56,970 nucleotides of DNA from an uncultured virus (IMG/VR IMGVR_UViG_3300007512_000010) (IMGVR_UViG_3300007512_000010:62001-118970); one strand, 5' to 3'; positions 8,952 to 56,181 are shown, counted from the first letter of the stretch. Numbers and translations are program-made. The notes: generated from the sequence alone by a model not told the origin.

Positions 8952-9375
8952 CGCTAAGCTCTTCTATTTTTATTTTGATGCCCACGAAGTCATGGGCGGG
9001 TCCGTCTAATTTCTGAATAAACTCCTCCGTGAAACAAGAATCGTCGATACCTAAACAGTCGGCCAGTACGTCCTCTAACACCTTTACTAAGTTTGATACG
9101 TCCCGCCGCTTGAATCGGGTCTTGGCCTTTGTTGGCCACCCCTTGTTGAACAAGGCTGGTAGGTAGTAGTAAATACTTAGTCGATGGGGCTTGTCTCCGT
9201 TTAGAGGGCTCCCGTCAAAGGACAGTTGTTGGGCTATCTCCATAGACGCTTTCGCTTTAAACTGTTTCATCTTGCTAGACGGCCTAGGCCCACGAGCAGT
9301 ATAGATATACATATTGTTAACTGACGGTGGTAGCAACGTCAACTCTGCAGTGAACACCGTCTTATTTTTATTCAC
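8941..9375 (-). CDS. rusA: RusA-family Holliday junction resolvase
   Basis: LPPSVNNMY, RRDVSNLVKVLEDVL and GIDDS motifs. Probable GTG start at 9375. Confidence 0.8.
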   Translation of the reverse strand: MNKNKTVFTAELTLLPPSVNNMYIYTARGPRPSSKMKQFKAKASMEIAQQLSFDGSPLNGDKPHRLSIYYYLPALFNKGWPTKAKTRFKRRDVSNLVKVLEDVLADCLGIDDSCFTEEFIQKLDGPAHDFVGIKIKIEELSDES

Positions 9376-9913: not shown

Positions 9914-9922
9914 AGGCACCTC

Positions 9923-10636: not shown

Positions 10637-10637
10637 T

Positions 10638-11405: not shown

Positions 11406-11406
11406 G

Positions 11407-11703
11407 CTAGTTACCGGTATTTAGCTGTCTCACACACGAGGTGTAAATAGCGTGGTCTAGCTCATTACCTGCCGCACTAGCCGAGAGTGTTCCAGAGCGA
11501 GCGTAAACTCGCCAGAGATCGCCATCGGCTTGTTGTAGGTCGGCGTATTTTTCGCCCATACAGGCGTGTATTTTCGCTAACTTCGCATCGTTTGGTTGGA
11601 TCCAGAACAGGTACCAACCGGTAGAGACGACGAGGAATGAGATTAACACTATGAAAATAGCTGGTTCAGGTAAGTACTTCATCATCAGAAGGCTCCTCTT
11701 CAT
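11407..11703 (-). CDS. Small membrane protein
   Basis: TM segment AIFIVLISFLVVSTGWYLFWI followed by a soluble domain with two Cys. Confidence 0.6.
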   Translation of the reverse strand: MKRSLLMMKYLPEPAIFIVLISFLVVSTGWYLFWIQPNDAKLAKIHACMGEKYADLQQADGDLWRVYARSGTLSASAAGNELDHAIYTSCVRQLNTGN

Positions 11704-28000: not shown

Positions 28001-30004
28001 ATGTCTAGTAATATTGGTCGTTACGTTTCAGGCGGTAGAGCCCGCGCATCCACGGTGGGCAGACCAGAAAAGTTCTACCCGAGTCCCTTTTTTGACGTTG
28101 CACAAAACTATCTACCCAAAACGATCAAAGATACTTTTGACTGGTGCTTGTACTACCAGCTTACTAATCCCCTGGTCAGCAGCATTACGCAGAAGCTCGC
28201 AACTTACGCCATTACCGACCTTATCTATGAGGACGATAACGAAGGCGTCACAGAGCGATACAAAGAGATCTTCGAAAAGCAGTTTTTGCTGCGGCAGTTC
28301 CTCGTAGAAACGAATCTAGATAGGTACACGTACGGCAATGCTTTTGTCTCCGTATCCTTCCCCTTTACAAAGGTTCTTACTTGTAAGGAGTGCAAGGCAG
28401 ACTACGAGGCAAGGAAGATCAAGTACAAGTGGAAGAGCTATCAATTCCACATCACTTGCGACTCGTGCGGGCACGAAGGGATTGCTGGTGTAAAGGATGA
28501 GCCAGTAAAGGCTGGCCTACAGATTCGGCTTATTCGTTGGAATCCGAAGAACATCAAAATCAACTACAACGAAATTACCGGGAAAAGCGAGTATTACTAC
28601 GAGGTTCCTCGCTATATCAAAAACGATATCACCCTCGGTAAACCCTCAATCATCGAAACGGTGCCGCAGGCTTTTATCGAGGCAATGCGGAAGAAGAAGA
28701 GCATCCTTCTCGAAAGCTCTAAACTGTTTCACGCGAAACGTGCATCAATCTCAAGAGCCCCCTCCGATAGTGGCTGGGGTGCTCCACTCATCCTCCCAGT
28801 GCTTAAGGATATTTTCTTTCTACAGGTCTTGAGGAAAGCTCAGGAAGCTGTCGCCATGGAGCACATCGTCCCCATGCGGGTCATGTTTCCACAGGTAACT
28901 ACAGACGGGAACAACCCTTACGCACACATCAATCTTCAGGATTGGCAGGAAGAGGTCTCTAGTCAGATTAAGAAGTGGCGGCAGGACAACAACCATATCC
29001 CGGTGATGCCTGTCCCCGTTGGCTACCAGATGATTGGCGGGCAAGGGCGGTCACTACTCCTCCACCAAGAACTCCGAATTTATAATGATCAAATAATCGC
29101 TGGAATGGGTGTTCCCACTGGGTTCTTTTACGGAGAGCAGCAGTACTCAGGGGCCTCAGTGAATCTTAGGGCGCTAGAGAATGAGTTTTTGGGAAATCGG
29201 CAGGATATGCTTCGTCTCGTTGAGTTTATCCGTGATCGTGTGTGCGCTTTCTTGGATCTTCCTAAAATCAAACTGAAGTTCAAGCCATTCAAGATGGCTG
29301 ACGACATCCAGCGAGCACAGTTTGATATGCAGCTTGCTGGCTCAAACATGATTAGTCGCAGAACCTTCTTGGAGTCCCGAGACTTTAACTTTGAGAGCGA
29401 GCAGGAACTTATCAGCACTGAACTGACGAAGATGAATAAGCAGCAGCGTGAGCAAATGATCGCACAGGCGAGCGCTCAGGGCGAAGCAATGCTCATCAAT
29501 ACTCGGTATCAGGGACAGGCTCAATTCCTACAGGCAGAGTCTCAGCAGGAGTTGCAACAGGCATTCCCGGAAATGGCCCAGCAACAAGCAGCCGCTCAAC
29601 AGGGCGGTGGTGCTCCGCAACAAGGAGGCGCTCCGCCACAGCAAGGCGGCGGTGATCCAGCCGCCGCTCAACAACAGGGGGCACCGCCTCCCGGAATGGA
29701 GCAACAGCAACAACAGCCGCCGCAACAAGAAGGCGGGCCTGTCCAAGGGGTGGAGCAGAGTCCGGTTCAGGCTCAACAAAACGGCGGCATGGTAGATATG
29801 TTTGCACAGGCCAAGCAACTCACCTCAGAGCTAAAAAAGATGAATGAGGTGGACAGGTATCGGGCCATGTCCCAAATCCGTGCAAGCAACCCTGATCTCT
29901 ACATGTTGGTGAATAATGCCCTATCTGGGGCTGGCGTGAAGTCCATGAATCCCCTACCGGAGAAACTACCTTCACGCGCAGACCCAGATAGAGCGCAGGT
30001 TTAA
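28001..30004 (+). CDS. Portal protein with a Zn-ribbon insertion and Gln/Pro-rich C-terminal region
   Basis: YYQLTNPLVSS, YTYGNAFV, IRWNPKNIKI, GWGAPLI, IIAGMGVP..F, SGASVNL motif series typical of large-phage portals; CKEC/CDSC. Confidence 0.75.
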   Translation: MSSNIGRYVSGGRARASTVGRPEKFYPSPFFDVAQNYLPKTIKDTFDWCLYYQLTNPLVSSITQKLATYAITDLIYEDDNEGVTERYKEIFEKQFLLRQFLVETNLDRYTYGNAFVSVSFPFTKVLTCKECKADYEARKIKYKWKSYQFHITCDSCGHEGIAGVKDEPVKAGLQIRLIRWNPKNIKINYNEITGKSEYYYEVPRYIKNDITLGKPSIIETVPQAFIEAMRKKKSILLESSKLFHAKRASISRAPSDSGWGAPLILPVLKDIFFLQVLRKAQEAVAMEHIVPMRVMFPQVTTDGNNPYAHINLQDWQEEVSSQIKKWRQDNNHIPVMPVPVGYQMIGGQGRSLLLHQELRIYNDQIIAGMGVPTGFFYGEQQYSGASVNLRALENEFLGNRQDMLRLVEFIRDRVCAFLDLPKIKLKFKPFKMADDIQRAQFDMQLAGSNMISRRTFLESRDFNFESEQELISTELTKMNKQQREQMIAQASAQGEAMLINTRYQGQAQFLQAESQQELQQAFPEMAQQQAAAQQGGGAPQQGGAPPQQGGGDPAAAQQQGAPPPGMEQQQQQPPQQEGGPVQGVEQSPVQAQQNGGMVDMFAQAKQLTSELKKMNEVDRYRAMSQIRASNPDLYMLVNNALSGAGVKSMNPLPEKLPSRADPDRAQV

Positions 30005-30432: not shown

Positions 30433-33400
30433 ATGGCAAACGTTCTAGATCCCCAGAGAGTTATGAAAGCTCTCGAAGACGGGACCGTAGAAAAAATAAA
30501 TAGTTTTTTTCCACTAGTAGGCAAGAAGCAAACATTAGTAGCTCGTAATATCTACACCACGGGCGATACTGATTTAGATGATATTCCTTCGCAGAAAAAA
30601 GCTAGATTACGTGGACGAACATGGGCTCAGGGAGTCTATGGTGACTTTGAGTTAGTCGATAACGAGACCGGCAAAGTCATAGATAAGGTGGCTAAGGTTA
30701 AAGTTGCCGCTGTCCCGAAAATCACAAGAAGATATAGCTACATTGTCGATGGTACGGAGTATCAGGTAGACAACCAGTGGCGGCTAAAATCCGGGGTGTA
30801 CGCCAGACGTAAAGCCAACGGAGAGCTTGAGAGCCAGTTCAACCTAGCGGCTGGGCGGGGTTTCCGTTTGGGATTCGACCCCGCAAGACGAAGATTCTTA
30901 ATGGGGTATGGAACGTCAAACGTTCAACTACTGCCCGTTCTACAAGCTTTGGGAATTCCGGATGAGGACATCCGTGCTGCTTGGGGGGCTGAGCTATACG
31001 CACGGAGCGTCTCTGATAAAAAGCGGGGGGAGGTCGTTAAGCTCGCCAAGGCTCTTGTACGCGGTGCCGCCCCAGCAAACGATACTGAGGCTGCGGCAAT
31101 CGTCAAAGAAGCGTACGACAAAACAGCGTTACTCAAAGATACAACAGCGATTACCCTGGGTGAAGGCTTCGATAAAGTCTCCGGTGGTGCGCTGCTAGCC
31201 TCTTCTAGAAAGTTATTAGCCATTAATAGGGGGGAGGCTGAGGTTGATAATCGGGACTCCCTTCGGTTTAAGGAGCTTTGGTCCATTGACAACCACATTC
31301 CCGAGCGGATTGGTAATTCAGCTAGAAGAATCCAGTATAAGCTAGGGAACAATATCGATAGGAAGGATAGCGTTCGCGCCATCGTTACACCGGATGTCTT
31401 CAACATCCCTATCAAAACCTTCTTTACGTCAACGTCGCTGTCCCAGCAAACAAGCCAAGTTAACCCGGTAGATATGATTGGTGGGTTCCTACGAACGACC
31501 ATTATGGGGCAGGGTGGTATTTCTAATGAGCAGGCTGTTTCAGATGATGCAAAGCTTATTGACTCTAGCTTCCTAGGGTTTATCGATCCGGTGCACACAC
31601 CAGAGGGCAAGCGTTCTGGTATCAGCGGGCATCTTGCTTTGGGTGTTAAGAAGGATGGGACGACGCCGTTAATCACTGTGTACGACACCAAGTCTGGGGC
31701 GTACGTGGATAAAAGCCCAGCAGACCTAGCTAATGCCGCCATCGCTTTCCCGGACCAGTACGACTTTTCTGGAAAGAAGCCTAAGGCCGTTGACAGCTTA
31801 GTAACGGTTGTCCGAAAAGACGGTGGGGATCCAGAGAAGGTTGCGCCTAATGAGGTCGATTACATCCTTCGGTCCCCCAAAGGCATGTTCTCCATCACAG
31901 CAAATCTGATCCCGTTCCTCCCTACGGATCAGGCTAATCGCGCTGGAATGGCTACCCGCCACATGGAACAAGCGGTAGCCCTAAAAGATCGAGAACAACC
32001 ACTTGTGCAGGTAGTCTCCGGCAACCCGAGCAAACGGTTTAAAACGTGGGAAAACATTGTAGGTTCCTTCACTAGTCACAACAGCCCAATCTCTGGGACT
32101 GTTCTGTCTGTTGGGGCCACCAAAATCGTTCTACAGGCGAAGGACGGTAGCAAGGTAGAGATGCCCCTCTACGACAACTTTCCCCTGAACGACAAGAAGG
32201 CCTTTGTCAGCAGCACCCCCTTGGTTAAGAAGGGGGACACCGTCAAAGCTGGCCAGACACTCGCGGACACCAACTTCACAAAAGACGGGACGCTGTCGAT
32301 GGGCACGAACCTTAGGGTTGGCTACATCCCCTACAAAGGTTTGGTGTTTGAGGACGGCATCGTCATCTCTGAAACGGCGTCAAAGAAGCTGACTAGCGAG
32401 CATCTGCACAAAAATAGGGCGTACGTTGAAAAAAATATGCAGGTTGGGCTACGCAAGTTCCGGGCAAATTTCCCAGGCTCAGTAACGGACGATAACGCTG
32501 CCAAGCTGGATGAGGATGGTGTCATTAAGAAGGGCCAGCGGGTTGACCCAGGCGACACTTTGATGACGGTTCTCCAAAAGACAGAGCCCTCAAAAGAGCA
32601 GGCGATGTTGAAGGGAATCCATAAATCCCTGGTACGCCCCTTCAAGGACCGCTCTGTCACCTGGGAGAAGCCTTACGCCGGAGTCGTTACGGATGTTGTT
32701 CGTAATGGTCGAGAGATAATGGTCTACGTAAAGACCGAAGAACCCGCAGACGTAGGAGATAAACTCACAGGTAGGCATGGCAATAAAGGTGTTATTACTG
32801 CCGTAATACCTGATGAGGAGATGCCCAGAGATGCGGAAGGGAACCCACTCCAGTTGATTCTGAATCCTTCTGGTGTTCCGGGCCGAATCAATCTAGGGCA
32901 GGTCCTAGAGACCAGTTTGGCTAAGGTTGCTGACAAGCGGGGCGAGCCTTACGCAGTCGATAACTTTCAGGCTAGCGGAGGGAAAAAGATTGTCCGGGTT
33001 AAGGAGCACACCCGCACTATCCAGACAAAAGAAGGCCCTAAGCAAATAACGATTAAGGCCCACGACCGTGAAGTCGGCTACCAAGAGCAGGTAAAGAAGG
33101 TTCTTGCCGCAGAGGGCGTCTCTGAAACCACGGAGTTGTTCGATCCGGTCACAGGGAAGAGTCTGGGGCAAGTACTGGTAGGTAAGCAGTACACGCTTAA
33201 GCTGCTACATCAGATTGATAAGAAGCTCCGTGCTAGGGCACATGGTTACGGACACGACTACGACGCAAACTTGGTTCCCAAGGGCGGTGGGGAAACCGGA
33301 GGCGCACAGCGGTTTGGCGAACTAGGTCTTTACGCCATGCTTGCCCACGGAGCTACAGCCAATATTCGGGACGCACTGACCTACAAAAGCGATAAGCAAC

Positions 33401-36400
33401 AGGATGAGATTTGGACAGCAGTCCAAACAGGCCAGATCCTCCCCAACCCAAAACCATCGTTCGCATATGAAAAATTCTTGGCGTACATGGGGGCTCTTGG
33501 TCTTAACGTGGAGAAGGAGGGGAATGGTCTTGTTGTCTCACCTCTCACGGATAAACAAATTCTTGAGACCTCTAACGGTGAGATTACCGATGGTAGTCGC
33601 GTAATTCGCGGCAAGGATCTAAAGCCAGAAAAGGGCGGTCTATTTGATGAGGACGTGACCGGTGGCCCAGGCGGTAATCATTGGGGGCACATCGCTCTTG
33701 GAACCTCTATGCCGAACCCCATGTTTGAAAAGGGTGTTCGGTCTTTGCTGGGACTGACTGGGAAAGAGTACGACAGTGCTATTGCGGGAACGCATAAAGA
33801 CATAGTCGGTCCTCAAGGAATCATTGCTGCCCTAGCTGCACTAAATGTGGATGAAGAGCTTGCCTCGGCTAAGGAACAGATAAAGACCGCTAGACGGGGT
33901 GAGCTAGATAAGCTGAACAAGAAGATTAAGTACCTGCTGATGCTCAAGAAGGAGGGCCTTTCCGCTGACAAGGCGTACGGAATAAGCAATGTGCCAGTCC
34001 TGCCCCCTATCTTTAGGCCCATTACCGCTATGGAGGGCGGGGATCTAAACATCGATGGTACAAACATGTTGTACCGCGATATCGCCATGCTCAACCAAAA
34101 GCTAAAGGAGGCCGATGGGGTTTTGCCCGAGTCCGCAACCGCGAAGCTCCGGGGCGACCTATACAATGCTGTGGATGCTTTGATGGGCGTGTCTACCCCT
34201 ACAGAGGGGGCCATGACTATGGATGGTCAAGCAAGACCCCCCGGAATACTCACCATTCTCTCTGGCCGTCAATCGCCAAAGCAGAGCTTTTTCCACAAAC
34301 GAATTCTGGATCGTAAGCAGGACATCTCCATGCGGTCGGTCATTGTTCCCGATATGGATCTGCACCTCGACGAGTTAGGTCTTCCGAGGAAGGGGGCTAT
34401 GAAGATCTACAGGCCCTTTGTGGTGAAGGAGCTTGTAAACATGGGGTATACGCCCCTCAAGGCTAGGGAAGAAATCGAGAAGAATAGTTCTTTGGCGAAT
34501 AGAGCCCTTGAGGTTGCTGTTAACAAGCGCCCGGTACTTTTTAAGCGTGACCCAGTTCTACATAAGTTTGGGATCATGGCCTTTAAGCCAAAACTTCACG
34601 ATGAGAAGTCCATCCACATCCACCCTCTGGTGACCGGTGGGTTCAATGCTGACTTTGACGGGGACACAATGGCCATCTTTGTGCCCGTATCCCAAGAGGC
34701 CGTCGATGAGGCGCATAAAATGCTGCCCTCAAAGAACCTGTTCAACCCTGCTACTGGGAGGGTGATGTACCAGCCGAGCCTAGAGGGCCAGTTAGGGCTC
34801 TACCTGCTTACCCAAATGGGGAAGAAGACGAGAACTAAGTTTGCCGATGCTAAAGAAGCATTAGCCGCCGCAGAGGCTGGAGATATTCTAGCTACTGATG
34901 TTGTGTCTGTTGGGGGATTACGAACAACGGCGGGAAGAATATTATTCAATAATGCCTTGCCGAAAAAGGTTCAATCTGAAGAAATCCTCACAGACCCTAA
35001 GCTGATTATGGGGAAGGGTGTCCTCCAAAACATCTTGCGCCAAGTAGCTGTGAAAAGCCCCGCAGAGTTCCAAGCCACAGCAGACAAGATAAAGAATCTT
35101 GGCTTTGGTCATGCGTACGACACCGGGTTCTCGTTTGATTTGGATGACTTCAACACTCTCACAGAGCTTCGCAATAGCAGGATGAAAGTTGCGCGGGCTA
35201 AGGAAACAGCCATCAGGAAAAAGGAGAAGATGAAGCTCATCTCTCCTAGCGCCGCCGAAGCTCAAATTATCGACCTGTATACCAAGGTGACAGAAGACCT
35301 GTCGTCAGAAGCTAAGAAGATTCTAGACAAAGATGGAAACAAACTCAGAGCTATGAACAACGCAGGAGTCAAACCCGCTTGGTCGCAGCTACAGCAGATG
35401 CTTATCGGACCCATGCTTCTAGAGAATGCGAGCGGTCGGGTTATTCCTGTGCCTGTAGACAGGTCATATTCCGAAGGTCTGCGTTCTTCTGATTACTGGG
35501 TCGCTTCATCTGGTGCGCGTAAGGGCCTCATTGAGAAGGTACAGTCTGTATCTGTTCCGGGGGCACTGAATAAACAAATAGCCAACACGGCTATTAGCTA
35601 CGTAGTTACACAGAATAATTGTGGTACGAAGCGGGGGATTGCCCTAGATATTGGCGACTCAGATTTAGTTGATCGGTTTACTGCTAAAGCCTTTAAGGCT
35701 GGGGGATCCACGGTCCCCGCAGGTACGGCCATAACCCCTGCGCTGCTTTCTAAGCTAAAGGCCTCAAAGGTCTCTAAAGTTGTGGCTAGATCGCCTATGA
35801 AATGTGAGTCCAAGAAGGGGCTGTGTTCTCACTGCTATGGGCTCATGGATGGTGGAAGGCCTGTTGAGGTGGGGACCAATATCGGGCTTATTGCCGGAAC
35901 CGCATTGGGGGAACGCGGCACACAGTTGTCTATGAAGACATTCCATACGGGCGGTGTGGCCGGGTCTTCTGCGGGTGTCGTTGGTGGCATTGACCGGATT
36001 AGCCAACTTCTGAAGATGCCCGCAACGCTACCTAACGCAGCAGTACTTTCTCCAGCTACCGCTGAGGTAAGCAAGGTGACTAAGAGCCCTGTCGGTGGTT
36101 TTGATATCTCTATTGGTAACGAGGACATCTATGTTCCGGCTGGGCGAACGATCAGTATCGGTGTTGGGGACAAGGTTAGGAAGGGCCAGCAGATTTCAAG
36201 TGGTGTAATTGAGCCCCGAGACCTATTGGCAAAGACCAACGTAGACACAGTCCAGGCGTACATCGCTGACGAGATCAACAAGGTGTATAAGAGCGAAGGG
36301 ATTAAACGAAGGAACATTGAGGTGGTCACCAAGGCGGTAACCAACCTCGGGCGGGTCACTGACCCTGGAGACTCCTCGTTTATCAAGAATGACTACATCT

Positions 36401-36666
36401 CTTTATCACACGCTGCTGCCCTCAATCGTTCTGGCAAAATGAAAGCCCCGATCAGAGTGCAGCCGATGCTCCGTGGTATCGAGACACTTCCTCTGGATCA
36501 GAGTACAGACTGGATCGCTAGGCTTCAGTACCGAAAACTTAAAGAAACCTTTATTAGGGCTGCGAATGAGGGATGGGAGTCTGATCTTCACGGAACACAC
36601 CCCGCCCCAGGCATCGCTTATTCCGCTGAATTCGGTAAGCCTAAAGATAGCGGAGGCCCTTATTAA
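30433..36666 (+). CDS. rpoBC: DNA-directed RNA polymerase, fused beta-beta' single polypeptide (bacterial type, streamlined)
   Basis: Beta motifs: IDPVHTPEG, LIPFL.TDQANRA.M, GLVFEDG, GDKLTGRHGNKGV, NPSGVPGRINLGQ, YTLKL.H, GGAQRFGE, KSD. Beta' motifs: GGLFD, WGHIAL, VLPPIFRP, RSVIVP, RDPVLH, catalytic NADFDGD (34645-34665), bridge helix GARKGL, C-x6-C-x2-C, trigger loop GERGTQLSMKTFHTGG. Confidence 0.95.
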   Translation: MANVLDPQRVMKALEDGTVEKINSFFPLVGKKQTLVARNIYTTGDTDLDDIPSQKKARLRGRTWAQGVYGDFELVDNETGKVIDKVAKVKVAAVPKITRRYSYIVDGTEYQVDNQWRLKSGVYARRKANGELESQFNLAAGRGFRLGFDPARRRFLMGYGTSNVQLLPVLQALGIPDEDIRAAWGAELYARSVSDKKRGEVVKLAKALVRGAAPANDTEAAAIVKEAYDKTALLKDTTAITLGEGFDKVSGGALLASSRKLLAINRGEAEVDNRDSLRFKELWSIDNHIPERIGNSARRIQYKLGNNIDRKDSVRAIVTPDVFNIPIKTFFTSTSLSQQTSQVNPVDMIGGFLRTTIMGQGGISNEQAVSDDAKLIDSSFLGFIDPVHTPEGKRSGISGHLALGVKKDGTTPLITVYDTKSGAYVDKSPADLANAAIAFPDQYDFSGKKPKAVDSLVTVVRKDGGDPEKVAPNEVDYILRSPKGMFSITANLIPFLPTDQANRAGMATRHMEQAVALKDREQPLVQVVSGNPSKRFKTWENIVGSFTSHNSPISGTVLSVGATKIVLQAKDGSKVEMPLYDNFPLNDKKAFVSSTPLVKKGDTVKAGQTLADTNFTKDGTLSMGTNLRVGYIPYKGLVFEDGIVISETASKKLTSEHLHKNRAYVEKNMQVGLRKFRANFPGSVTDDNAAKLDEDGVIKKGQRVDPGDTLMTVLQKTEPSKEQAMLKGIHKSLVRPFKDRSVTWEKPYAGVVTDVVRNGREIMVYVKTEEPADVGDKLTGRHGNKGVITAVIPDEEMPRDAEGNPLQLILNPSGVPGRINLGQVLETSLAKVADKRGEPYAVDNFQASGGKKIVRVKEHTRTIQTKEGPKQITIKAHDREVGYQEQVKKVLAAEGVSETTELFDPVTGKSLGQVLVGKQYTLKLLHQIDKKLRARAHGYGHDYDANLVPKGGGETGGAQRFGELGLYAMLAHGATANIRDALTYKSDKQQDEIWTAVQTGQILPNPKPSFAYEKFLAYMGALGLNVEKEGNGLVVSPLTDKQILETSNGEITDGSRVIRGKDLKPEKGGLFDEDVTGGPGGNHWGHIALGTSMPNPMFEKGVRSLLGLTGKEYDSAIAGTHKDIVGPQGIIAALAALNVDEELASAKEQIKTARRGELDKLNKKIKYLLMLKKEGLSADKAYGISNVPVLPPIFRPITAMEGGDLNIDGTNMLYRDIAMLNQKLKEADGVLPESATAKLRGDLYNAVDALMGVSTPTEGAMTMDGQARPPGILTILSGRQSPKQSFFHKRILDRKQDISMRSVIVPDMDLHLDELGLPRKGAMKIYRPFVVKELVNMGYTPLKAREEIEKNSSLANRALEVAVNKRPVLFKRDPVLHKFGIMAFKPKLHDEKSIHIHPLVTGGFNADFDGDTMAIFVPVSQEAVDEAHKMLPSKNLFNPATGRVMYQPSLEGQLGLYLLTQMGKKTRTKFADAKEALAAAEAGDILATDVVSVGGLRTTAGRILFNNALPKKVQSEEILTDPKLIMGKGVLQNILRQVAVKSPAEFQATADKIKNLGFGHAYDTGFSFDLDDFNTLTELRNSRMKVARAKETAIRKKEKMKLISPSAAEAQIIDLYTKVTEDLSSEAKKILDKDGNKLRAMNNAGVKPAWSQLQQMLIGPMLLENASGRVIPVPVDRSYSEGLRSSDYWVASSGARKGLIEKVQSVSVPGALNKQIANTAISYVVTQNNCGTKRGIALDIGDSDLVDRFTAKAFKAGGSTVPAGTAITPALLSKLKASKVSKVVARSPMKCESKKGLCSHCYGLMDGGRPVEVGTNIGLIAGTALGERGTQLSMKTFHTGGVAGSSAGVVGGIDRISQLLKMPATLPNAAVLSPATAEVSKVTKSPVGGFDISIGNEDIYVPAGRTISIGVGDKVRKGQQISSGVIEPRDLLAKTNVDTVQAYIADEINKVYKSEGIKRRNIEVVTKAVTNLGRVTDPGDSSFIKNDYISLSHAAALNRSGKMKAPIRVQPMLRGIETLPLDQSTDWIARLQYRKLKETFIRAANEGWESDLHGTHPAPGIAYSAEFGKPKDSGGPY

Positions 36667-38123
36667 TGTCTGAATTTCAAGATGGTATGGGGCAAACTCC
36701 TGGGTTTGCTGACAGGCCCGCGAAGGTGCACCTAGCTCTGGTACAGAGTGTGAACGTGCAAGAGTTTACTTGTGACTTGATGACGATTTACACGCATAAG
36801 GCATTGGTGGATGTTCCTTTTGCTGCTGGGTATTGTCATCAAGATCATGTTGGTGGGTTGTACTGGATGCCGGAAGTGAACTCACACTGTTATGTGTGTG
36901 AGTGTGCCGATGGGACGTCCTTTATCCTCTCGTTCATCATAAACGCACAGCCAGCCGTTGTCCCGGAGCACATGGCTGAGTTGGACGGCCCAAGCGCAGA
37001 ATTGATTGAAGAGTCCGCTGATGCTGGGCCGAACTTCCGGGCAATGCGGGAGAACCTAGAACCCGGCGACATTTACATGGGTGCTATTGACGGTAATCAT
37101 GTCATTGTTCGGCGTGGTGGGATGGTACAAATCGGCGCTACTGGGTTAGCGCAGCGCGTCTACCTGCCCATCGAGAATTTAGTACGCGACTACTTCCAGA
37201 GATACCAAGCCTACAGCCCCGTTGGAGAGATTGAATGGGGCCACGCACAACTAGTTGAGGGCGAAACGCCCACAGAGGTTCTAGGCTACTTGTCTTCTGA
37301 TTTGTTGGAGGAGGCCGATAAGAGCAAGGCTCTGAGCGCGGCAGCAGAGACGCCGGTGATGGTTCGGTACAACATAAAAGATTTGTGCCAAGAGGACGTT
37401 AAGGAAGGCAAGTACACTGTAGAGCTTCGTATTGGTCGTTTAACTCCAGAGGTCTTAGATACCGAGGAGGATGCTGAACATGAGTTTGGTTATTTGGGGC
37501 ACAAAGCCACCAAGGATCGAGTTGATCAGCCAGTACGGTTAACGGGTAGCCACAAAGCTAAAGGTATTAGAAAAGAGTCCAAGGGCATCCTCAGCCTTAC
37601 CATCTACAACCATGACCCCGAGAAGGATACGAACACCGAGACCAAGGATTCCGTTTGCTACGCCTTCCAACTAAATCGAGAAGGGGATGCACTTGTTTTC
37701 ACAAAGGGGCATATACACGCTGAGATAGACCAGACACTATATGCGCGTGTTAATAAAGGTATCAAGGTTGTTTACGGTGGTGACGGTGGGAGCGAAGATA
37801 CCAAGGAAAATAAGCAGAGTATCCTTGAATTATTAGACACTAATGAGTTTGAAGCTCAAGTAAAATCAGTATTATTCAAGGTGCTGGAAGAGATGGATTT
37901 CCAGGTTAAGGGCGATGTCCTTATTCAGGGAGAGGCAAATATTCAGTTGGGAACCAACAGTGACGAACTACAAGGGGTGGTTCGTTGGCAGGATTTAAAG
38001 ACTTGGCTAGAGAGCAAGTTCTCATGCGCTACCCCGGCTGGTCCTAGCGGACCCGTCCTCCCTAGCGCGACAGTTACGTTTGAAGATGATGTAGCGTCTA
38101 AGACAGTAAAGGCTAAAAAGTAA
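36666..38123 (+). CDS. Baseplate hub/central spike protein (gp5/GpV-like OB fold + beta-rich C-terminus)
   Basis: ALVQSVN...GGLYWMPEVNS.C.V OB-fold signature; C-terminal TPAGPSGP apex-like motif. Confidence 0.65.
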   Translation: MSEFQDGMGQTPGFADRPAKVHLALVQSVNVQEFTCDLMTIYTHKALVDVPFAAGYCHQDHVGGLYWMPEVNSHCYVCECADGTSFILSFIINAQPAVVPEHMAELDGPSAELIEESADAGPNFRAMRENLEPGDIYMGAIDGNHVIVRRGGMVQIGATGLAQRVYLPIENLVRDYFQRYQAYSPVGEIEWGHAQLVEGETPTEVLGYLSSDLLEEADKSKALSAAAETPVMVRYNIKDLCQEDVKEGKYTVELRIGRLTPEVLDTEEDAEHEFGYLGHKATKDRVDQPVRLTGSHKAKGIRKESKGILSLTIYNHDPEKDTNTETKDSVCYAFQLNREGDALVFTKGHIHAEIDQTLYARVNKGIKVVYGGDGGSEDTKENKQSILELLDTNEFEAQVKSVLFKVLEEMDFQVKGDVLIQGEANIQLGTNSDELQGVVRWQDLKTWLESKFSCATPAGPSGPVLPSATVTFEDDVASKTVKAKK

Positions 38124-41808: not shown

Positions 41809-42592
41809 ACGACAAGAGGCCCCTGGGTATCTGACAACCTTAGGCAAAGCCGCTCCCTTTTTTCTTGCTAAGTCCGTTTTGGGAGATCTTCCAAAAGGTG
41901 GGATTGAGAAAGCAATCGAGTTGAAACTAGGTCCCAAGAAGGTACCCCTACGGAAGGGCTTCATGAAGGGGATTTCTGGTAGGGGCTCTGGCCGTGCGAT
42001 TGGGGCAATGAGCGGAATTGTCACTGCTCCCCTATACCTAAAGAGTCTTAGCCTCTTAAAGTCTAAGAAGAAGAGCGACCGCAAGAAGGGGCTGGCCCTC
42101 CTAGTAGGGGTTACGAGCACTTTCACAGTACAGAAGGGGATGCTTGAGAGCATCGGTGAGCAGGGTGGAATCTCGAAAGCTATTCGACGCCGAGTTAGTC
42201 GCCTCCCTGCTAAAGCTTCTGGCACTTCTTTGAAGAAGGCCCTCGGTCTTGGGGTGGGCAGGCTCTCCTATAAGATCCCTTCCGCTTTGATTATGGCGAA
42301 GGGCCTCACAAGCGGTGGCGGCAAAGGCAAGGGTAAGAAGAATAAAGCTCTTATGTCCGCTGCCTTGGGCGGGGCTGGGGCTGGTGCGCTTAGCCGTGCG
42401 GGCGATACCATCATTAAGGAACTTACCGCGAAGTCAACCAGCAAGGCGTACAAGTTCAACCCAGGCATCTTCGGCAAGAAGATGATGGCGGGTGGTGTAG
42501 GCGGTGCAGCAGCAGGGGCGCTCGGTGGGCTAGTCCTATCCAAAGCGATTTCTGCAGCGAACAAGTCCTTGTCCGGTGGTAAGAAGAAGTGA
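41801..42592 (+). CDS. Highly basic Gly/Ala/Lys-rich protein with glycine-zipper hydrophobic segments (candidate internal/ejection protein)
   Basis: AAGGAGG RBS; GGVGGAAAGALGGLVL, AALGGAGAGAL. Confidence 0.6.
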   Translation: MAKRQEAPGYLTTLGKAAPFFLAKSVLGDLPKGGIEKAIELKLGPKKVPLRKGFMKGISGRGSGRAIGAMSGIVTAPLYLKSLSLLKSKKKSDRKKGLALLVGVTSTFTVQKGMLESIGEQGGISKAIRRRVSRLPAKASGTSLKKALGLGVGRLSYKIPSALIMAKGLTSGGGKGKGKKNKALMSAALGGAGAGALSRAGDTIIKELTAKSTSKAYKFNPGIFGKKMMAGGVGGAAAGALGGLVLSKAISAANKSLSGGKKK

Positions 42593-44376
42593 GGTTTTTC
42601 CTTAAATGCGCCGCCGAGGTCGCTCAGGAAGTGCAACACGGTACGGGTATTCCCGCGCTTAAAGAGTGGTTTAAACCGTATGAGCACCAAGCAAAAGCGA
42701 TAGAGCGTCTGTACGCAAATAAGGGAAAAATGATTCTCGCCCACGAGATGGGCACGGGGAAAACCGCTACAAGCATTTACGGATTTGAGAAGCTACGTCA
42801 CGATGGGAAAGCAAAGAAGGCGCTAGTAGTTGTTCCCTCTGGCTTACGGGCCAACTTTGCGGATGGCGGTGTTCGAAAGTTCACCACTAGCAGCGTTCAG
42901 ATTGTTGGCTCGCCTGCTGAAGTTCGGAAGAAGGACGGCTACGTACGCCCAGGTAGCGAGGGCAACGCTGATTACACAATCATAAGCTACGCCCAGTTTC
43001 GGAAGGACCCAAAAGGGTTCATGGAGCGAACCGGGGCTGACACTCTGATTTTAGATGAGTTCCACAAGACTAGAAATGAATCCGCATCAACGTTTAAAGC
43101 GGCAGTAGAGGCTCGAAGGTACGCGGTCAACTTCATGGGGCTGACAGCCTCTTTGATCAACAACCGCCCTTCTGAAATTGCCTCGTTGATGACCATCTCC
43201 GAGAACAACCGAGAGATGACGCCCCAGCAATTCAGACGAAGGTTCACCAAGACTGTTGGGACAGCAAAGGGTTTTGGTGGTGGGAAGAAGAAGATTCGCG
43301 GCTACCAGCGGGTTGAGGAGCTAAAGGCCCGGACACAACCGAGAATAGACTACATTGAGACGGGTGATCTTAAGGGCAAAACGATGCCCCGGAAGGATGT
43401 GCGGAATGTGGACGTGGAGATGTCCCCCGCACAGTACGATCTATACCAGCTAGCTCTGGATAAGCATCCAGCGATTAAAGAGATGCTTATGCGTAGAGAC
43501 AAGAACATCACCGTCAAGGATGCGAAGTTCATCTTCGCCCAGATCGCGGCGGCTCGACAGGTTGCTAACTCTGTGCACACCGGAAGATCAGACGTGACTG
43601 CAGCGCAATCCGCTCAGCAGACACCAAAGGCTAAAAAGGTACTGGATGACACGGCGCAGCATCTCACAGAGAAGCCCGACAACAAGGTTGTCCTGTACAG
43701 CAACTTGGTACGTGGTGGTGTGGACGTCCTATCTGCTGGCCTAAAAGCTCGCGGTATCGATCATGCCGTGTTTGTTGGCAAAGGAACAACCGTTGGTGAG
43801 AACAAGGTCACTGCCCTGACAAGACAACAGGGAGTGAAGGACTACCAAGCAGGCAAGAAGAAAGTAATCATCCTAAGCGGTGCTGGTGCGGAAGGCCTCG
43901 ACCTGAAGAACTCTACTGCGTTTTACGCGTTGGACGGGCACTTCAACCCGCAACGGATTCTTCAGGCGGAAGCCCGTGCCCGTAGACTCGGTGGGCAGCA
44001 ACACCGTGCCGTTGAGAACCGGGCGGTAGATGTTCGACGGTACAGAAGTACTGTGCCCAAGGCAGCTAGACCAGGATTTATTGGTCGAGCGATGGGTAAG
44101 AAGACCCCCCAAACCACAGACGAATGGATGTACGGAGTTGCTGGGCGAAAGTTCAAGCAGCAGAAGGACTTCTACACAGCCTTTAAAAAGCCTACTAAAT
44201 TTATCTATAAGTATAGAGACAACACAACAGGGAAGATGCGTTATGTTTACCCGAAACAAAAGGCCCCAAAACAAGGGTTCTTCAGTAAATTATTTGGAGG
44301 TAAATCGCCTTCTAGACCAACTCCAAGCCAAACTAGCCAGCACTCAGCCACCCAGGCTGCGGTTAGCGCAAGCTGA
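42589..44376 (+). CDS. SNF2-like SF2 helicase/ATPase in the virion module
   Basis: PYEHQ, AHEMGTGKT, LDEFH, GLTASL, GAEGLDL, QAEARARR. Confidence 0.85.
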   Translation: MRFFLKCAAEVAQEVQHGTGIPALKEWFKPYEHQAKAIERLYANKGKMILAHEMGTGKTATSIYGFEKLRHDGKAKKALVVVPSGLRANFADGGVRKFTTSSVQIVGSPAEVRKKDGYVRPGSEGNADYTIISYAQFRKDPKGFMERTGADTLILDEFHKTRNESASTFKAAVEARRYAVNFMGLTASLINNRPSEIASLMTISENNREMTPQQFRRRFTKTVGTAKGFGGGKKKIRGYQRVEELKARTQPRIDYIETGDLKGKTMPRKDVRNVDVEMSPAQYDLYQLALDKHPAIKEMLMRRDKNITVKDAKFIFAQIAAARQVANSVHTGRSDVTAAQSAQQTPKAKKVLDDTAQHLTEKPDNKVVLYSNLVRGGVDVLSAGLKARGIDHAVFVGKGTTVGENKVTALTRQQGVKDYQAGKKKVIILSGAGAEGLDLKNSTAFYALDGHFNPQRILQAEARARRLGGQQHRAVENRAVDVRRYRSTVPKAARPGFIGRAMGKKTPQTTDEWMYGVAGRKFKQQKDFYTAFKKPTKFIYKYRDNTTGKMRYVYPKQKAPKQGFFSKLFGGKSPSRPTPSQTSQHSATQAAVSAS

Positions 44377-44515: not shown

Positions 44516-44729
44516 TTTTCACAAGCCCTCTTTTTGTATTTATGGAGACCCTGGCTCTCGGTATGTATTCACCAATGAACTCTTTTAAGAGCTTTTTATT
44601 ATGTTGTGATATTGGGGGCCACAGCTTAAGAACGTATGTGTTCTCGGCATCTTCTTTATAGGAAACAAGGTCGTTTCCAAGTGCCCTAGATAAGGAACCC
44701 ACTAAACTAGTTACGGTATCTTTGATCAT
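44496..44729 (-). CDS. Small hypothetical protein, antisense within the virion module
   Basis: Fills the gap between the helicase and terminase genes; protein-like composition. Confidence 0.4.
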   Translation of the reverse strand: MIKDTVTSLVGSLSRALGNDLVSYKEDAENTYVLKLWPPISQHNKKLLKEFIGEYIPRARVSINTKRGLVKITLRPR

Positions 44730-46371
44730 GTCTTTACTCGATGAACAATCAGCAGCTTTTGAGAGGGATAATAATCTCTTTCCTAGCGAGTTTGTATCAT
44801 CTTTCTTCAATATGCCCAGCTTGGGAGAGTTGGAGCATTTTTCGTTTAAAGGCAGGCGTTACCTGATCCCTATCTATGACACACCTTCCCAGAGACTGCT
44901 TCTTCAGTGTGGCCGACAGGTAGAGAAGAGCACAACCCTAGGGAATATTACGCTAACATACTCGACTTTGAGAAGGCACTTTAGGTCGCTGTTCGTAAGC
45001 CCCACTCAGCAGCAGACTGAAACATTCTCAAGGGATAGGATACAGACACCTATAGAACTCTCCCCCACACTACAAACTTTTGCAGAGGGAGCGAATACCA
45101 AGAACAACGTTCTGTACAAGAAGTATGTGACAGGCTCAGACATCACTATGCGGTATGCCTTTTTACACGCAGATCGCGTGCGCGGTATCTCTGCTGACAT
45201 GCTTTTGTTGGATGAGATTCAGGACATCCTTACAGACATCATCCCAATTATTGAGGAGGCGTTGTCGCACTCCCCGTTCAAGATTCTTCGCTACTCCGGT
45301 ACGCCGAAGAGCTTGGACAACACCATCAGCTACTATTGGAACCAATTCAGCACCCAAAATGAGTGGGTTGTTCCATGTGAGGGCTGTAACACTTGGAATG
45401 TTCTGGGAGAAGACAACATTGGTGCCCAGGGGTTGATCTGTAAAAAATGCGGGAGGGCCATACATGCGGATCATCCAAGGGCTCAATGGGCGTCCATGCG
45501 GTCACCCCAATGGCTGAAGCACCCACCGGTTACGACGCCTTTTGAGGGGTACAGAATCCCACAGTTAATTGCTCCTTGGGTGCGTTGGGACGATATTCTC
45601 GATAAAAGGAAACGGTACAGTCGCGCTCAGTTTTTTAATGAGGTTTTGGGCGTTGGTTACGATTCTGGTGAGAAACCTATCAACAAGGAATCTCTGATAA
45701 AGTGCTGTAATCAAGAACGACCAAACACACTGGAGTTCGCGACTAAATTCGTTAAGGGCCGTAATCGAAAAGTCTATCTAGGGATTGATTGGGGTACAGG
45801 AGAGAATACTTATTCCGTACTTGTTGCTGGGTGTTATATCGGCCGCATCTTTACTATCATCTACTGTAGACGGTATGAGGGTGAAGACGGCAGTCCAGAA
45901 AACCTTATGAACGACATTGCCAAGCTGATGGATAGATTCGAAGTTCGCATAGCTGGGGTTGACTACGGGGGTGGATTTGACCGTAATGACCGGCTGATAA
46001 GGCAGTTTGGGATTGCCCGTGTTGCGAGGTATCAGTACGTAAATGCTAAGAGAATCTACTTCGACAAAAGCCTCCATAGGTTTATGGTTAATAGGACGGA
46101 GGCGTTGATGGCGGTTATTAACGCAATTAATCGTGAGGACGAATTAGCCTTCCCTAAATGGGAAGATTTTGAAACACCCTTTGGAAGCGACCTCTTATCT
46201 GTATTTACAGAGTACAACGAGGCGCGAAGAACGACTATTATTAATAGGACACCGGGTACAACAGATGATACTTTGCACGCAATTACCTACTGTTTTCTGG
46301 CGTCTATGATAGAACACCCAAGACCTGATATTATTAGCCCGTCAGGGGATGATAAGCATGATAGAGGTTAG
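44728..46371 (+). CDS. terL: Terminase large subunit (lambda GpA-like)
   Basis: FSFKGRRYLIPIY, Walker A variant GRQVEKST, Walker B LLLDEIQD, SGTP coupling motif, CEGC/CKKC, FFNEVLG, nuclease LGIDWG, DDTLHA. Confidence 0.9.
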   Translation: MSLLDEQSAAFERDNNLFPSEFVSSFFNMPSLGELEHFSFKGRRYLIPIYDTPSQRLLLQCGRQVEKSTTLGNITLTYSTLRRHFRSLFVSPTQQQTETFSRDRIQTPIELSPTLQTFAEGANTKNNVLYKKYVTGSDITMRYAFLHADRVRGISADMLLLDEIQDILTDIIPIIEEALSHSPFKILRYSGTPKSLDNTISYYWNQFSTQNEWVVPCEGCNTWNVLGEDNIGAQGLICKKCGRAIHADHPRAQWASMRSPQWLKHPPVTTPFEGYRIPQLIAPWVRWDDILDKRKRYSRAQFFNEVLGVGYDSGEKPINKESLIKCCNQERPNTLEFATKFVKGRNRKVYLGIDWGTGENTYSVLVAGCYIGRIFTIIYCRRYEGEDGSPENLMNDIAKLMDRFEVRIAGVDYGGGFDRNDRLIRQFGIARVARYQYVNAKRIYFDKSLHRFMVNRTEALMAVINAINREDELAFPKWEDFETPFGSDLLSVFTEYNEARRTTIINRTPGTTDDTLHAITYCFLASMIEHPRPDIISPSGDDKHDRG

Positions 46372-48127: not shown

Positions 48128-48843
48128 GTTTAGTGCACACACTACCCGTGGCAAAGCGTTCGACACTTAACGTACGTCCCCATGAGAAGCAGCAAAACAA
48201 GCACAAGCTTGCTATGGAACTTCGAAAGGTTGCTGGCCCCGGTGAACAGGCTGGGGGGTGGGTTAATAGAAACATCCTCGATAGGAGTATCGGAGGACAC
48301 TCTCTTCGGTCGGTCACCCAAGGGGTTAACCAAGGTCTGTGGTCAGGCCCCTCTGAGCTAGCTGCTACTCCTTTTAGGAGAGGGGCCGATAAAGCCAAAG
48401 AGATCCTTTTAGGAAAGCGCTCCACGGAAGGCGTCCATGCAGGTAAACGTCTCCACTCTTTAGCAACGGGTAATGCGGCTAAAGACATAGCGGCTGGCAA
48501 TATTACACCTGTATCCAAAGAGGTCGCTGACGAGATTTTGTCTGGTAGAGCGAAGGGCCAAATAACCAAAGGAAGTGTGGGCGGGAAAACCGTCTACTAC
48601 AAAACCAAGTTTAGGCCGAAGGGTGTTGTTGGTTGGGGCATGAAAAACCCAGGCAAAATGGGCCTTGCGGCACTTGCTGCATACATGCTCTTGAAGCCAG
48701 AAGCTCGACAGACTGCTGGTAGCGTAGCTAGCGGCTTTGTACCCAGGGGTCCAAAAGGACCCACAGAAGAGTTCCAGCGGGAGTGGGCACCAAAACAACA
48801 ACAATCAGCAAGGCCTGCTCTTCAGCAACAGGCATGGGGTTAA
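48124..48843 (+). CDS. Basic putative internal protein with a C-terminal hydrophobic helix
   Basis: ELRKVAG near the N-terminus; MGLAALAAYMLL. Confidence 0.55.
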   Translation: MSLVHTLPVAKRSTLNVRPHEKQQNKHKLAMELRKVAGPGEQAGGWVNRNILDRSIGGHSLRSVTQGVNQGLWSGPSELAATPFRRGADKAKEILLGKRSTEGVHAGKRLHSLATGNAAKDIAAGNITPVSKEVADEILSGRAKGQITKGSVGGKTVYYKTKFRPKGVVGWGMKNPGKMGLAALAAYMLLKPEARQTAGSVASGFVPRGPKGPTEEFQREWAPKQQQSARPALQQQAWG

Positions 48844-48844
48844 A

Positions 48845-54987: not shown

Positions 54988-56181
54988 ATGTCTAGTGTAC
55001 CTAATGAAGTCCTCAACGAGCTTTTCGTTTCGAAACTCGATAGTGAGGCTGGTAAAGAAAAGATTGCTGCCCTAGGTGGTGATTACATTCGTGATCGTCT
55101 GCGTGAGGAGAGCTTTGCTCGCAAAGTCCTCCCCCCGAAGTCGGTTTCTCGCTCTGACCTTCAGGTCAGTGTTGCCCACGACACCCTGGTGAAGATCGTA
55201 GAGGTCGAACCCCAGAGCCGTGCCATGTCGATGTCTTTCCGAGGCCAGCCCTCGGTGAAGTACTACACTGGCCCGCGTTTTGAGGTTCCGTTCCACACGG
55301 TCGGTTCGCTCCGTTACGAGCAGACCGAGCAGGAGCTTATGGCCTACACGCTTCCGATCACCGAGATCATCCGTCGTAACATTGTTAACGACATCCAGGA
55401 GATCGAGGATCGGGTGTTCCTGAACCACATGGAGTCGGCTGTTCAGTCACTCCAGCAGGATGCACAGAGCCTTACCTTTGGCGCTGCTTACGCCGACGCT
55501 GCTGCCTTCTCGGCATGGAACGTCGAGAATAACAGCCTGTCTGAGGTCGGTAAGTGCAAGGGTGTTGATGTTCTCAACAATACTGCCGTAGCTAACGCTT
55601 CGGACAGCCTTGATGAGGATCTCGTCTACCCCATCCAGAAGGATGACCTGATTAAGCTGTTCCAGCTTTTCACTGGTACGGGTAACCGTGGTTCGCGTTT
55701 GCGTTGTGATCAGTTCCTGATCACTGACACTGACTTCGAAGACATCAACGCGTGGGCTCATAGCGATATGGGCGAGAAGGTCGGTGAGACGACCGTTGAC
55801 GGGTTCAAGTACAAGACGCTCATTGGGCGTCGCTTTGTGCGTACCCTGAAGACGGACATCCTCCGTCCCGGTAACATCTACGCGTTCTGCTCTCCGGAGT
55901 ACTTGGGTGGCTTCCTGCTTCTCAACAAGACCAAGTTCTTTGCCGATAAGGAACGGAACCGGGTCTCGTTTGAGGCATGGGAAGACATTGGTATGTACGT
56001 TGGTAACGTCGCTGGTGTGCGTAAGCTTGAGCTTTACGCCGGTGCGGTCGAGACCGTTGGTACTGCCGCTGACAATGCGACCACACGGGCCGCATACCTG
56101 CCCAAGGCAGAGGCCGATCTTGGTGCGAAGAACAACCTTGTTGAGGAAGGCGAAACCTTCCCCAGCATCTCGAACTTCTAG
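54988..56181 (+). CDS. Major capsid protein (HK97 fold)
   Basis: Strong AAGGAGG RBS; DYIRDRLREESFARKVLPP, IQEIEDRVF, CSPEYLG, AWEDIGMYVGN; follows protease/scaffold/decoration genes and precedes a stable hairpin. Confidence 0.8.
   Translation: MSSVPNEVLNELFVSKLDSEAGKEKIAALGGDYIRDRLREESFARKVLPPKSVSRSDLQVSVAHDTLVKIVEVEPQSRAMSMSFRGQPSVKYYTGPRFEVPFHTVGSLRYEQTEQELMAYTLPITEIIRRNIVNDIQEIEDRVFLNHMESAVQSLQQDAQSLTFGAAYADAAAFSAWNVENNSLSEVGKCKGVDVLNNTAVANASDSLDEDLVYPIQKDDLIKLFQLFTGTGNRGSRLRCDQFLITDTDFEDINAWAHSDMGEKVGETTVDGFKYKTLIGRRFVRTLKTDILRPGNIYAFCSPEYLGGFLLLNKTKFFADKERNRVSFEAWEDIGMYVGNVAGVRKLELYAGAVETVGTAADNATTRAAYLPKAEADLGAKNNLVEEGETFPSISNF

Follow-up and report, generated by a model that had tools for sequence, protein, structure and literature searches.

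The closest described counterparts of the RNA polymerase (RNAP) treated here belong to the mReC lineage (multi-subunit-RNAP-encoding Caudovirales), which comprises large tailed-phage contigs from aquatic and other metagenomes. According to the main text of its description (Weinheimer & Aylward 2020, PMC7481178), beta and beta' of this lineage are recognised by cellular hidden Markov models (HMMs) and form a clade apart from the cellular enzymes. The same text refers to them as "subunits" and uses "fused" and "fusion" only for crAssphage; outside the supplements, it makes no mention of sigma, virion, intein or split. Cultured relatives with genomes of ~181-187 kb and ~30% identity are Salmonella phage Arash (PMC10585845) and the Vibrio phages D69, D148 and D181. 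The present analysis concerns a gene for a fused beta-beta' RNAP (30433..36666, plus strand) in a 56,970-nucleotide stretch of DNA from an uncultured virus, a large marine phage (IMGVR_UViG_3300007512_000010:62001-118970). This stretch, hereafter the window, forms the final 57 kb of a 118,970-base IMG/VR virus record with a CheckV completeness of 67%. The explanation accounting best for the collected evidence is that the gene provides, with beta and beta' united in one chain, the catalytic part of a bacterial-type transcription machine that belongs to the phage itself; including use of the phage sigma and delivery from the virion, this reading has a probability of about 0.55.

As in mReC, beta and beta' of the window are found by cellular profiles on a tailed-phage contig carrying capsid, terminase and portal genes. 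The clade is in agreement with the lineage of 97 contigs, as published, in every tested feature. Arash and the Vibrio phages share with the window phage the same beta-beta' junction fusion, a gp10-type sigma, portal, SNF2 ATPase, terminase and capsid. They differ in that beta' is cut after the catalytic domain, yielding pieces of ~1525 aa and ~606 aa (~610 aa annotated in D69). The DNA between these pieces measures ~0.6 kb in D69 and ~4.8 kb in Arash, and in D148 and D181 a homing endonuclease is annotated there.

The phiKZ/AR9-type RNAPs of jumbo phages are likewise phage-encoded two-barrel enzymes devoid of alpha and omega, with one set packaged in the virion. They consist, however, of 4-5 polypeptides, occur as virion and non-virion paralogs and lack a recognisable initiation factor, whereas the window phage has one chain, one copy and a sigma70-family gene in its genome; the phiKZ/AR9-type PHROGs match the window RNAP weakly (E 1e-30 to 1e-5). 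Cellular fusions, known from Helicobacter and found here also in a Paceibacterota metagenome-assembled genome (MAG), show the same beta-then-beta' order and are joined at the natural termini, but are larger (frames of 2908 and 2284 aa, respectively). Being cellular, they would be accompanied by alpha, omega and sigma genes. Single giant polypeptides whose delivery from the virion is established or assumed are represented by the crAss-like gp66 and the N4-type virion RNAPs. The crAss enzyme is too divergent for cellular HMMs (main text of PMC7481178), in contrast to the window RNAP with its seven recognised Pfam RNAP domains; the N4 RNAP has a T7-like single-subunit fold, unlike the window RNAP.

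Lineage (mReC, 2020) and isolate (Arash, 2023) are thus already in print, which limits the discovery value of the window. Some annotations of homologs by the Joint Genome Institute (JGI) already read "beta subunit/beta' subunit"; together with the published lineage these names assign the RNAP gene to an already known kind. Fusion, sigma partnership, single copy and zinc-ribbon loss in this clade were not found in the literature searched, subscription journals and the mReC supplements lying outside its scope, and are descriptive additions to a known lineage.

Anatomy of the fused polymerase

The gene is a single ATG-started open reading frame (ORF) of 2077 amino acids (aa) with no internal stop codon. 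A ribosome-binding site (GGAGG) lies ahead of the start codon, the end of the gene shares bases with the ATG of the following one through its stop codon, and the chain has a mass of ~230 kDa. Pfam domains of beta (Rpb2_3, residues 340-403; Rpb2_6, 554-938, E 1.2e-55; Rpb2_7, 957-996) are followed by those of beta' (Rpb1_1, 1141-1255; Rpb1_2, to 1431, E 1.5e-27; Rpb1_3, 1435-1572; Rpb1_5, 1682-1863, E 3.7e-22). A PDB sequence search returned 186 distinct bacterial RNAP chains at E<=1e-10, with a Thermus beta' at the top (E 2e-116). When 30 members of the family are aligned with the Salmonella subunits (beta, 1342 aa; beta', 1407 aa; both from a record of the phage collection), the following elements can be placed, given by window position:

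30433..33525, plus strand: beta module, residues 1-1031
31420..31509, plus strand: equivalent of rifampicin-pocket cluster I, aligning with Salmonella beta 505-534, key residues substituted
32590..32625, plus strand: equivalent of the flap-tip helix, aligning free of deletions with Salmonella beta ~897-908
32770..32793, plus strand: beta active-site motif GRHGNKGV, residues 780-787, identical to Salmonella beta 1063-1070
33490..33561, plus strand: beta/beta' junction without linker; Salmonella beta ~1342 corresponds to phage residue ~1031 and beta' ~20 to phage residue 1033
33529..36663, plus strand: beta' module, residues 1033-2077
33634..33702, plus strand: deletion site of the beta' N-terminal zinc ribbon, Salmonella beta' 68-99 being unmatched in the phage
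34063..34188, plus strand: clamp helices (coiled coil), aligning with Salmonella beta' ~262-309 with a one-residue gap
34645..34665, plus strand: NADFDGD, catalytic Mg-binding motif, residues 1405-1411
35494..35598, plus strand: bridge helix, residues 1688-1722, aligning with Salmonella beta' ~769-805
35614..35841, plus strand: second zinc site, Cys1730, 1791, 1798 and 1801, equivalent to Salmonella beta' C814, C888, C895 and C898
35881..35964, plus strand: trigger loop, residues 1817-1844, aligning with Salmonella beta' ~913-942, large enterobacterial insert absent

A first-pass annotation, made from the sequence alone, had described a phage-encoded single-chain enzyme of the bacterial RNAP type: a 2077-aa ORF with beta motifs followed by beta' motifs, intact NADFDGD, bridge helix and trigger loop, and a fusion point at ~33500-33560. 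These descriptions hold throughout. The Pfam search gives the same domain order, the three motifs lie at the residues listed, the string quoted for the fusion point corresponds to residues 1020-1043 (nt 33490-33561), and Pfam, alignment and fold matches agree on the type of enzyme. The observation of a single-chain beta-beta' RNAP ORF is confirmed, and to judge from its sequence the gene almost certainly specifies an active fused RNAP. Across 44 aligned sequences D1407, D1409, G1410 and D1411 of the Mg-binding motif are invariant and A1406 and F1408 nearly so, N1405 falling in neither class. The beta FEDG motif and flap as well as the beta' lid and rudder are likewise retained in the Salmonella alignment; bridge helix, trigger loop, lid, rudder, clamp helices and flap with tip helix align to Salmonella without deletion.

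An artefact, whether a misassembly with bacterial chromosomal DNA or a pseudogene fused in frame, is another explanation to consider for such a gene, and the first-pass annotation had itself named a chimera as an outcome that would overturn its reading. This was looked for and excluded. The guanine-plus-cytosine content is even over the window (0.47-0.55), phage genes flank the gene on both sides, a 100% identical gene occurs in two further IMG/VR records (L010 and L011), the same architecture recurs in 72 loci, and the junction is conserved (residues 1001-1075 are gap-free and 65-70% conserved among the 30 family members). With no point in its favour and contradicted by composition, flanks, further records and junction, an artefact is rejected as having a practically negligible probability.

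Salmonella beta residues 2-37, 221-302 plus 321-360, 941-1049 and 1126-1141 are devoid of a phage counterpart, as are beta' residues 1-19, 68-99, 127-151, 164-176, 551-567, 696-709 and 1383-1407 and a further ~188 residues between 947 and 1179, following the trigger loop. The shortening of ~650 aa noted in the first pass was measured as 672 aa against the summed Salmonella subunits. Three of the absent blocks, which we take to be the inserts labelled beta SI1, beta SI2 and beta' SI3, sum to 419 of these net 672 residues (~60%), so that most of the apparent streamlining is mere absence of enterobacterial inserts. The phage chain is ~200 aa below the most compact cellular sets sampled (the 2284-aa fused Paceibacterota MAG frame, and 1082 plus 1275 aa in another MAG). 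Only four cysteines occur in the whole 2077-aa protein, every one at the second zinc site, and the family consensus has none at the N-terminal zinc-ribbon site; at the level of the alignment the loss of this ribbon is real. The chain is shown by the alignment to comprise a complete bacterial-type beta plus beta', minus the zinc ribbon and the three enterobacterial inserts.

AlphaFold modelling of the separate halves is compatible with this anatomy. The model of the beta half (predicted local distance difference test score, pLDDT, 83.5; predicted template modelling score, pTM, 0.79) matches bacterial beta subunits by Foldseek with template modelling (TM) scores of 0.74-0.75. In VIA, model residues 1-955 align with residues 14-982 of 9dvs_C (Z 35.3, root-mean-square deviation (rmsd) 3.8 A, 857 aligned residues); the model of this half can be laid over compact bacterial betas almost from end to end. 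The beta' half (pLDDT 80.7, pTM 0.51) matches bacterial beta' (Foldseek E 1e-63), and its VIA match (Z 31-32) spans E. coli beta' 16-1375, ~990 residues being aligned. The global rmsd is ~21 A here, because folding this half in isolation gives wrong domain orientations. The clamp helices are predicted as two long helices (H189-207 and H213-231 in beta' model numbering) and correspond to the main docking site for sigma region 2 in bacteria, the flap-tip helix to that for region 4.

At the positions of Salmonella D516, H526 and S531 the phage RNAP carries S, G and T. We take these positions to govern rifampicin binding and resistance, with which PDB titles naming RpoB-H526Y and D516V are consistent; given their place at resistance sites, the substitutions predict insensitivity of the phage RNAP to the drug.

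Fixation of the fusion and origin of the clade

A protein database search yielded 512 matches, and all 120 of those listed carry beta and beta' domains (PF00562 and PF00623). Among these 120, 85 measure 2020-2120 aa and one 2010 aa; the other 34 exceed this range, and in 30 of them intein, LAGLIDADG or homing-endonuclease domains are listed. IMG/VR holds 72 related viral loci on contigs of up to 195.6 kb. The RNAP is present in one copy per genome, as judged from one Rpb2_6 site here and one beta' frame in each of five related records. Across these sequences the comparison shows the beta-beta' fusion to be of long standing and universal within a large clade of phages. The gene is at the same time a hotspot for selfish elements, and in the Arash/D69 group beta' is interrupted by inserted genes behind its catalytic domain.

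Rhizobium phage RHph_TM30 (L178, NC_070966.1, 207 kb) encodes at 8392-11775 a lone beta'-like protein of 1127 aa with 28% identity to residues 1184-1839. Neither Rpb2_6 nor a gp10-type sigma is detectable anywhere in the TM30 genome, and this phage, tried as an unfused relative, was dropped from the family as representing a different arrangement.

The first-pass annotation had further proposed a bacteria-derived RNAP captured and minimised by a phage, a proposal taken here as capture of an rpoB-rpoC pair from a host-like bacterium, followed by fusion and trimming. The bacterial rather than archaeal or phiKZ-like architecture (flap, clamp helices, second zinc site) and the existence of cellular fusions would fit a fairly recent capture. 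Identity to Salmonella is, however, only 27.7% for beta and 28.3% for beta', and a pattern search of prokaryotes, with one genome per species, gave at least 600 matches of which the best 80 are all ordinary rpoC from many phyla at 27-34% identity. BLAST scores of Salmonella against other bacteria amount to 900-1600 bits per subunit, against 200-350 bits towards the phage clade.

A tree of concatenated or fused beta+beta' (32 rows, 1950 columns; IQ-TREE quick search, LG+C20 with posterior mean site frequencies, PMSF) included 19 bacterial rows (17 drawn from the 80 genome loci, to which Salmonella and a Staphylococcus record were added) and 13 phage rows (10 of the 72 viral loci, the window RNAP, Arash and D69). 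L118 (beta missing from the sequence), L144 (fragmented) and L066 (intein) were omitted. One branch of ~2.4 substitutions per site, with a Shimodaira-Hasegawa-like approximate likelihood ratio test (SH-aLRT) value of 100, parts the phage rows from all bacterial rows, in agreement with mReC as regards bacteria, and Arash plus D69 form the sister group of the 11 rows that are fully fused. Both cellular fusions, Helicobacter L168 (2908 aa) and Paceibacterota MAG L141 (2284 aa), fall on the bacterial side; nesting among bacteria, they arose independently. Built from bacterial and phage rows, the tree is compatible with an ancient as well as with a merely fast-evolving clade. An ancient origin of the RNAP is argued in the main text of the mReC paper, with the three domains of life included (PMC7481178). 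A recent bacterial capture is therefore not supported by the sequences and is regarded as very improbable; the minimisation part of the proposal likewise gives way before the enterobacterial inserts, which account for ~419 of the missing residues, and the beta half that superposes whole-length on compact betas.

Two bacterial rows are of interest in themselves. In L141, a Candidatus Paceibacterota MAG contig, the 2284-aa frame starting from base 163 comprises beta (13-1049) and beta' (1060-2233) and groups with other Patescibacteria, so that its fusion is independent of that in the phage. L176, a MAG labelled uncultured Gammaproteobacteria, encodes unusually small subunits (beta 1082 aa, beta' 1275 aa); its branch is long and does not join the two Pseudomonadota rows, and its bin label may be wrong.

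Sigma-like gene and core partners

No alpha, omega or sigma gene resides in the window, a statement of the first-pass annotation with which Pfam- and PHROG-type scans agree. The search of the remaining genome for alpha and sigma that it had suggested was carried out, a 155.7-kb record of the same phage adding 56,475 bases to give 175,445 bases combined. Alpha was not found; a sigma70-family gene was:

G000:C1:21468-22367 (L006:1468-2367), plus strand: sigma70-family gene, 299 aa, outside the window, 71 kb upstream of the RNAP gene, among tail/virion genes

Its product is homologous to Arash gp10, annotated "RNA polymerase sigma factor" (E 1e-21), matches phrog_351 (sigma factor, E 1.3e-13) and scores 27.2 bits for Pfam Sigma70_r3, above the cut-off of 25.3. 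Positions 51-203 of a 42-sequence profile correspond to regions 2-3 of solved RpoS (7.7e-9, best), SigA, HrdB and RpoD. The C-terminus gave only weak matches (sigma F, E 0.01; FliA, E 0.04), and Pfam Sigma70_r4 was not found. The gene is kept in all five related viral records (including 4/4 rated >=90% complete; one represents the same phage) and also in D69 and Arash, i.e. in 7/7 distinct phages. Sigma homologs number 170 in the database, and their longest contigs coincide in size with those of the RNAP homologs. The earlier suggestion that the polymerase possibly works without sigma is not supported in view of this conserved gene.

The accompanying suggestion of independence from alpha is compatible with the searches. 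The remaining 56 kb of the genome (85 ORFs, by Pfam) yielded no alpha, omega or further sigma, and RNA_pol_A_bac had no match in this record. Six-frame searches for RNA_pol_L, and for Rpb6/omega above the cut-off, gave no positive among five records in either case. Pfam and profile searches thus leave no detectable alpha or omega in ~175 kb of phage sequence, divergent analogues being possible. An additional Sigma70_r2 protein is present in one of five relatives (G005) and in Arash, whose second sigma, gp196, has no homolog in the ~175 kb of the window phage (phmmer, E<=10).

Taken together, it is probable that the RNAP works with the phage sigma, as the sequences suggest. In the rival explanation, the sigma-like protein reprograms the host core, as do the sigmas of T4 and SPO1, whereas the fused RNAP initiates sigma-free or with an unrecognised factor, as in phiKZ/AR9. 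This alternative draws on the behaviour of known phage sigmas, which classically redirect the host core polymerase, on the phiKZ-type multisubunit RNAPs, described as lacking a recognisable initiation factor, on the lost beta' zinc ribbon and on the sporadic extra sigmas of the clade (Arash gp196; G005). It accords poorly with the occurrence of a gp10-type sigma in 7/7 phages with this RNAP and its absence from TM30, which lacks such an RNAP, with the retention of clamp helices and flap-tip helix, and with the joint detection of sigma and RNAP in Arash virions. It is considered clearly unlikely.

Several points besides the host-directed action of known phage sigmas weigh against a self-sufficient phage enzyme steered by its own sigma. 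Co-occurrence of sigma and RNAP in one phage clade does not tell which polymerase the sigma serves. The missing N-terminal zinc ribbon is presumed to contact sigma and DNA in bacterial holoenzymes. The beta' model has a wrong inter-domain geometry, the halves having been modelled separately and with sigma absent. The absence of alpha and omega covers ~175 kb, ~2-5 kb of genome may remain, and the small ORFs of the window were only partly scanned by Pfam. Finally, no promoter motif common to 74 upstream regions emerged when the combined 175 kb were searched: at word lengths of 6, 7 and 8 only Shine-Dalgarno and AT-rich words stood out (best p 3.6e-5 over 3687 tests), and no 8-mer occurred in at least five regions.

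Neighbourhood, possible virion packaging and significance

The minus-strand flank encodes DNA polymerase, primase, helicases and a UvsX-like recombinase. The RNAP gene shares its orientation with the genes for portal, terminase, a protease-like protein and capsid in the plus-strand head/packaging block, in which the following features were assigned:

28001..30004, plus strand: portal homolog, 34% identity to the annotated portal Arash gp204 (E 6e-101)
36666..38123, plus strand: conserved downstream gene, 485 aa, start overlapping the RNAP stop codon, weak baseplate hub/central spike leads
42589..44376, plus strand: SNF2-family ATPase, Pfam SNF2-rel_dom E 4.6e-17, E 2e-37 to Arash gp217
44722..46371, plus strand: large terminase, phrog_675 E 4.8e-68, Arash gp1 E 5e-45
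54988..56181, plus strand: major capsid protein homolog, Arash gp226 E 7e-32, weak phrog_2522 match

The portal homolog lies upstream on the same strand in 62/64 related loci with >=2.6 kb of upstream sequence (directly adjacent in 24/64), and the 485-aa gene follows the RNAP in all 60 loci with >=1.6 kb downstream. For the 485-aa gene, the protein atlas offers the Gp5_OB and Phage_base_V clusters as leads; a PDB sequence search was empty at E<=1, and no PHROG came under E 0.04. It is possibly, as a lead only, a baseplate hub or central spike. For the 656-aa gene further downstream the protein atlas gave no usable match. Of the placement between portal and spike genes asserted in the first-pass annotation, the portal side stands; the spike identity has weak leads.

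The SNF2 ATPase may be a polymerase-associated factor packaged with the RNAP. An assignment as RapA-like was rejected: its PDB matches are generic SNF2/ISWI/Rad54, with RapA not among 35 matches at E<=0.001.

Other observations concern the wider genome. A head-module protein (48737-49957, plus strand) contains at residues 109-160 a histone H1-like Hc1 domain (PF07432, E 3.8e-9), and its C-terminus matches gp221, a structural protein of Arash; an internal protein that condenses DNA is a possible identity. A run of giant ORFs on the plus strand (2020, 1210, 999, 2613, 2225, 1532, 841, 998 and 2883 aa) occupies G000:C1:59234-67885 (ending at window position 5885) and the upstream region 8041-58377. 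These ORFs mostly lack family matches, a few having PKD, Ig-like or laminin-G domains and therefore being presumed fibres or adhesins. A SET methyltransferase domain (PF00856, E 2.6e-9) is found in an ORF of 99 aa (L095:6971-7270, minus strand) within the remaining 56 kb of this phage.

Packaging of this phage's own RNAP and its delivery from the virion, as proposed in the first pass, is somewhat favoured by analogy to Arash, whose homologs rank among the most-detected proteins of gradient-purified virions. In that study, the RNAP piece Gp206 is represented by 128 unique peptides and, with 3516, by more spectra than any other protein (PMC10585845). The RNAP piece Gp216 (40 unique peptides), sigma Gp10 (24), SNF2 Gp217 (38) and portal (32) are also detected, whereas evident carry-over enzymes have 2-3 and helicases 2 unique peptides (PMC10585845). 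The same data include 116 of 272 Arash proteins in virions, metabolic enzymes among them, and the authors themselves raise carry-over (PMC10585845); carry-over is therefore real, and this breadth of detection keeps the estimate for packaging at that modest level. Arash is, furthermore, only ~30% identical and has a split beta', so that the transfer of its proteomics is indirect, and the window phage and all fully fused members are known from their sequences.

Alternatively, the RNAP may not be packaged at all and may be made after infection for middle and late genes, with the host RNAP reading the early genes and the Arash signal reflecting abundance plus carry-over. Ribonucleotide reductases and RNA ligases in the Arash virion preparation are in line with such a course. 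So are the single polymerase per genome, unlike phiKZ-type phages, which need a separate virion copy, and the unfolding or special handling that tail passage of a 230-kDa chain needs. The Arash RNAP pieces, sigma and SNF2, with 24-128 unique peptides, are however comparable to or above the portal, far from the 2-3 of evident contaminants, and the gene of the window phage is located inside the head/packaging block, its stop codon overlapping the start of the next ORF with its weak spike leads. Synthesis solely after infection is accordingly thought somewhat unlikely.

Under the preferred reading of a phage-owned bacterial-type transcription machine, the covalent beta-beta' link would take over the assembly role of the alpha dimer, and the phage sigma would dock on the retained clamp helices and flap tip and steer the RNAP to phage promoters. 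The enzyme would be made late with the head genes and packaged in the capsid, probably with sigma and the SNF2 ATPase. Delivered with the DNA, it would let early genes be read without host polymerase, and its rifampicin-pocket substitutions would render it insensitive to the drug. In its most far-reaching form, this would be the smallest self-contained bacterial-type transcription system known: one chain plus one sigma, without alpha, omega and zinc ribbon, packaged with sigma and the SNF2 ATPase, ejected with the DNA, and, being the sole polymerase encoded by the phage, running the entire early-to-late programme independent of host enzyme and rifampicin. This full version is rather doubtful.

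Should the mechanism hold, the clade would possess a naturally minimised bacterial-type RNAP, a two-gene holoenzyme assembling without the alpha platform. The real need for alpha, omega and the beta' zinc ribbon would then become directly testable, as would the packaging and ejection of a 230-kDa enzyme and the travel of sigma in the virion, and the cultured relatives Arash, D69, D148 and D181 make such experiments feasible. Cell-free and synthetic biology would also gain a compact, orthogonal transcription module that is probably insensitive to rifampicin.

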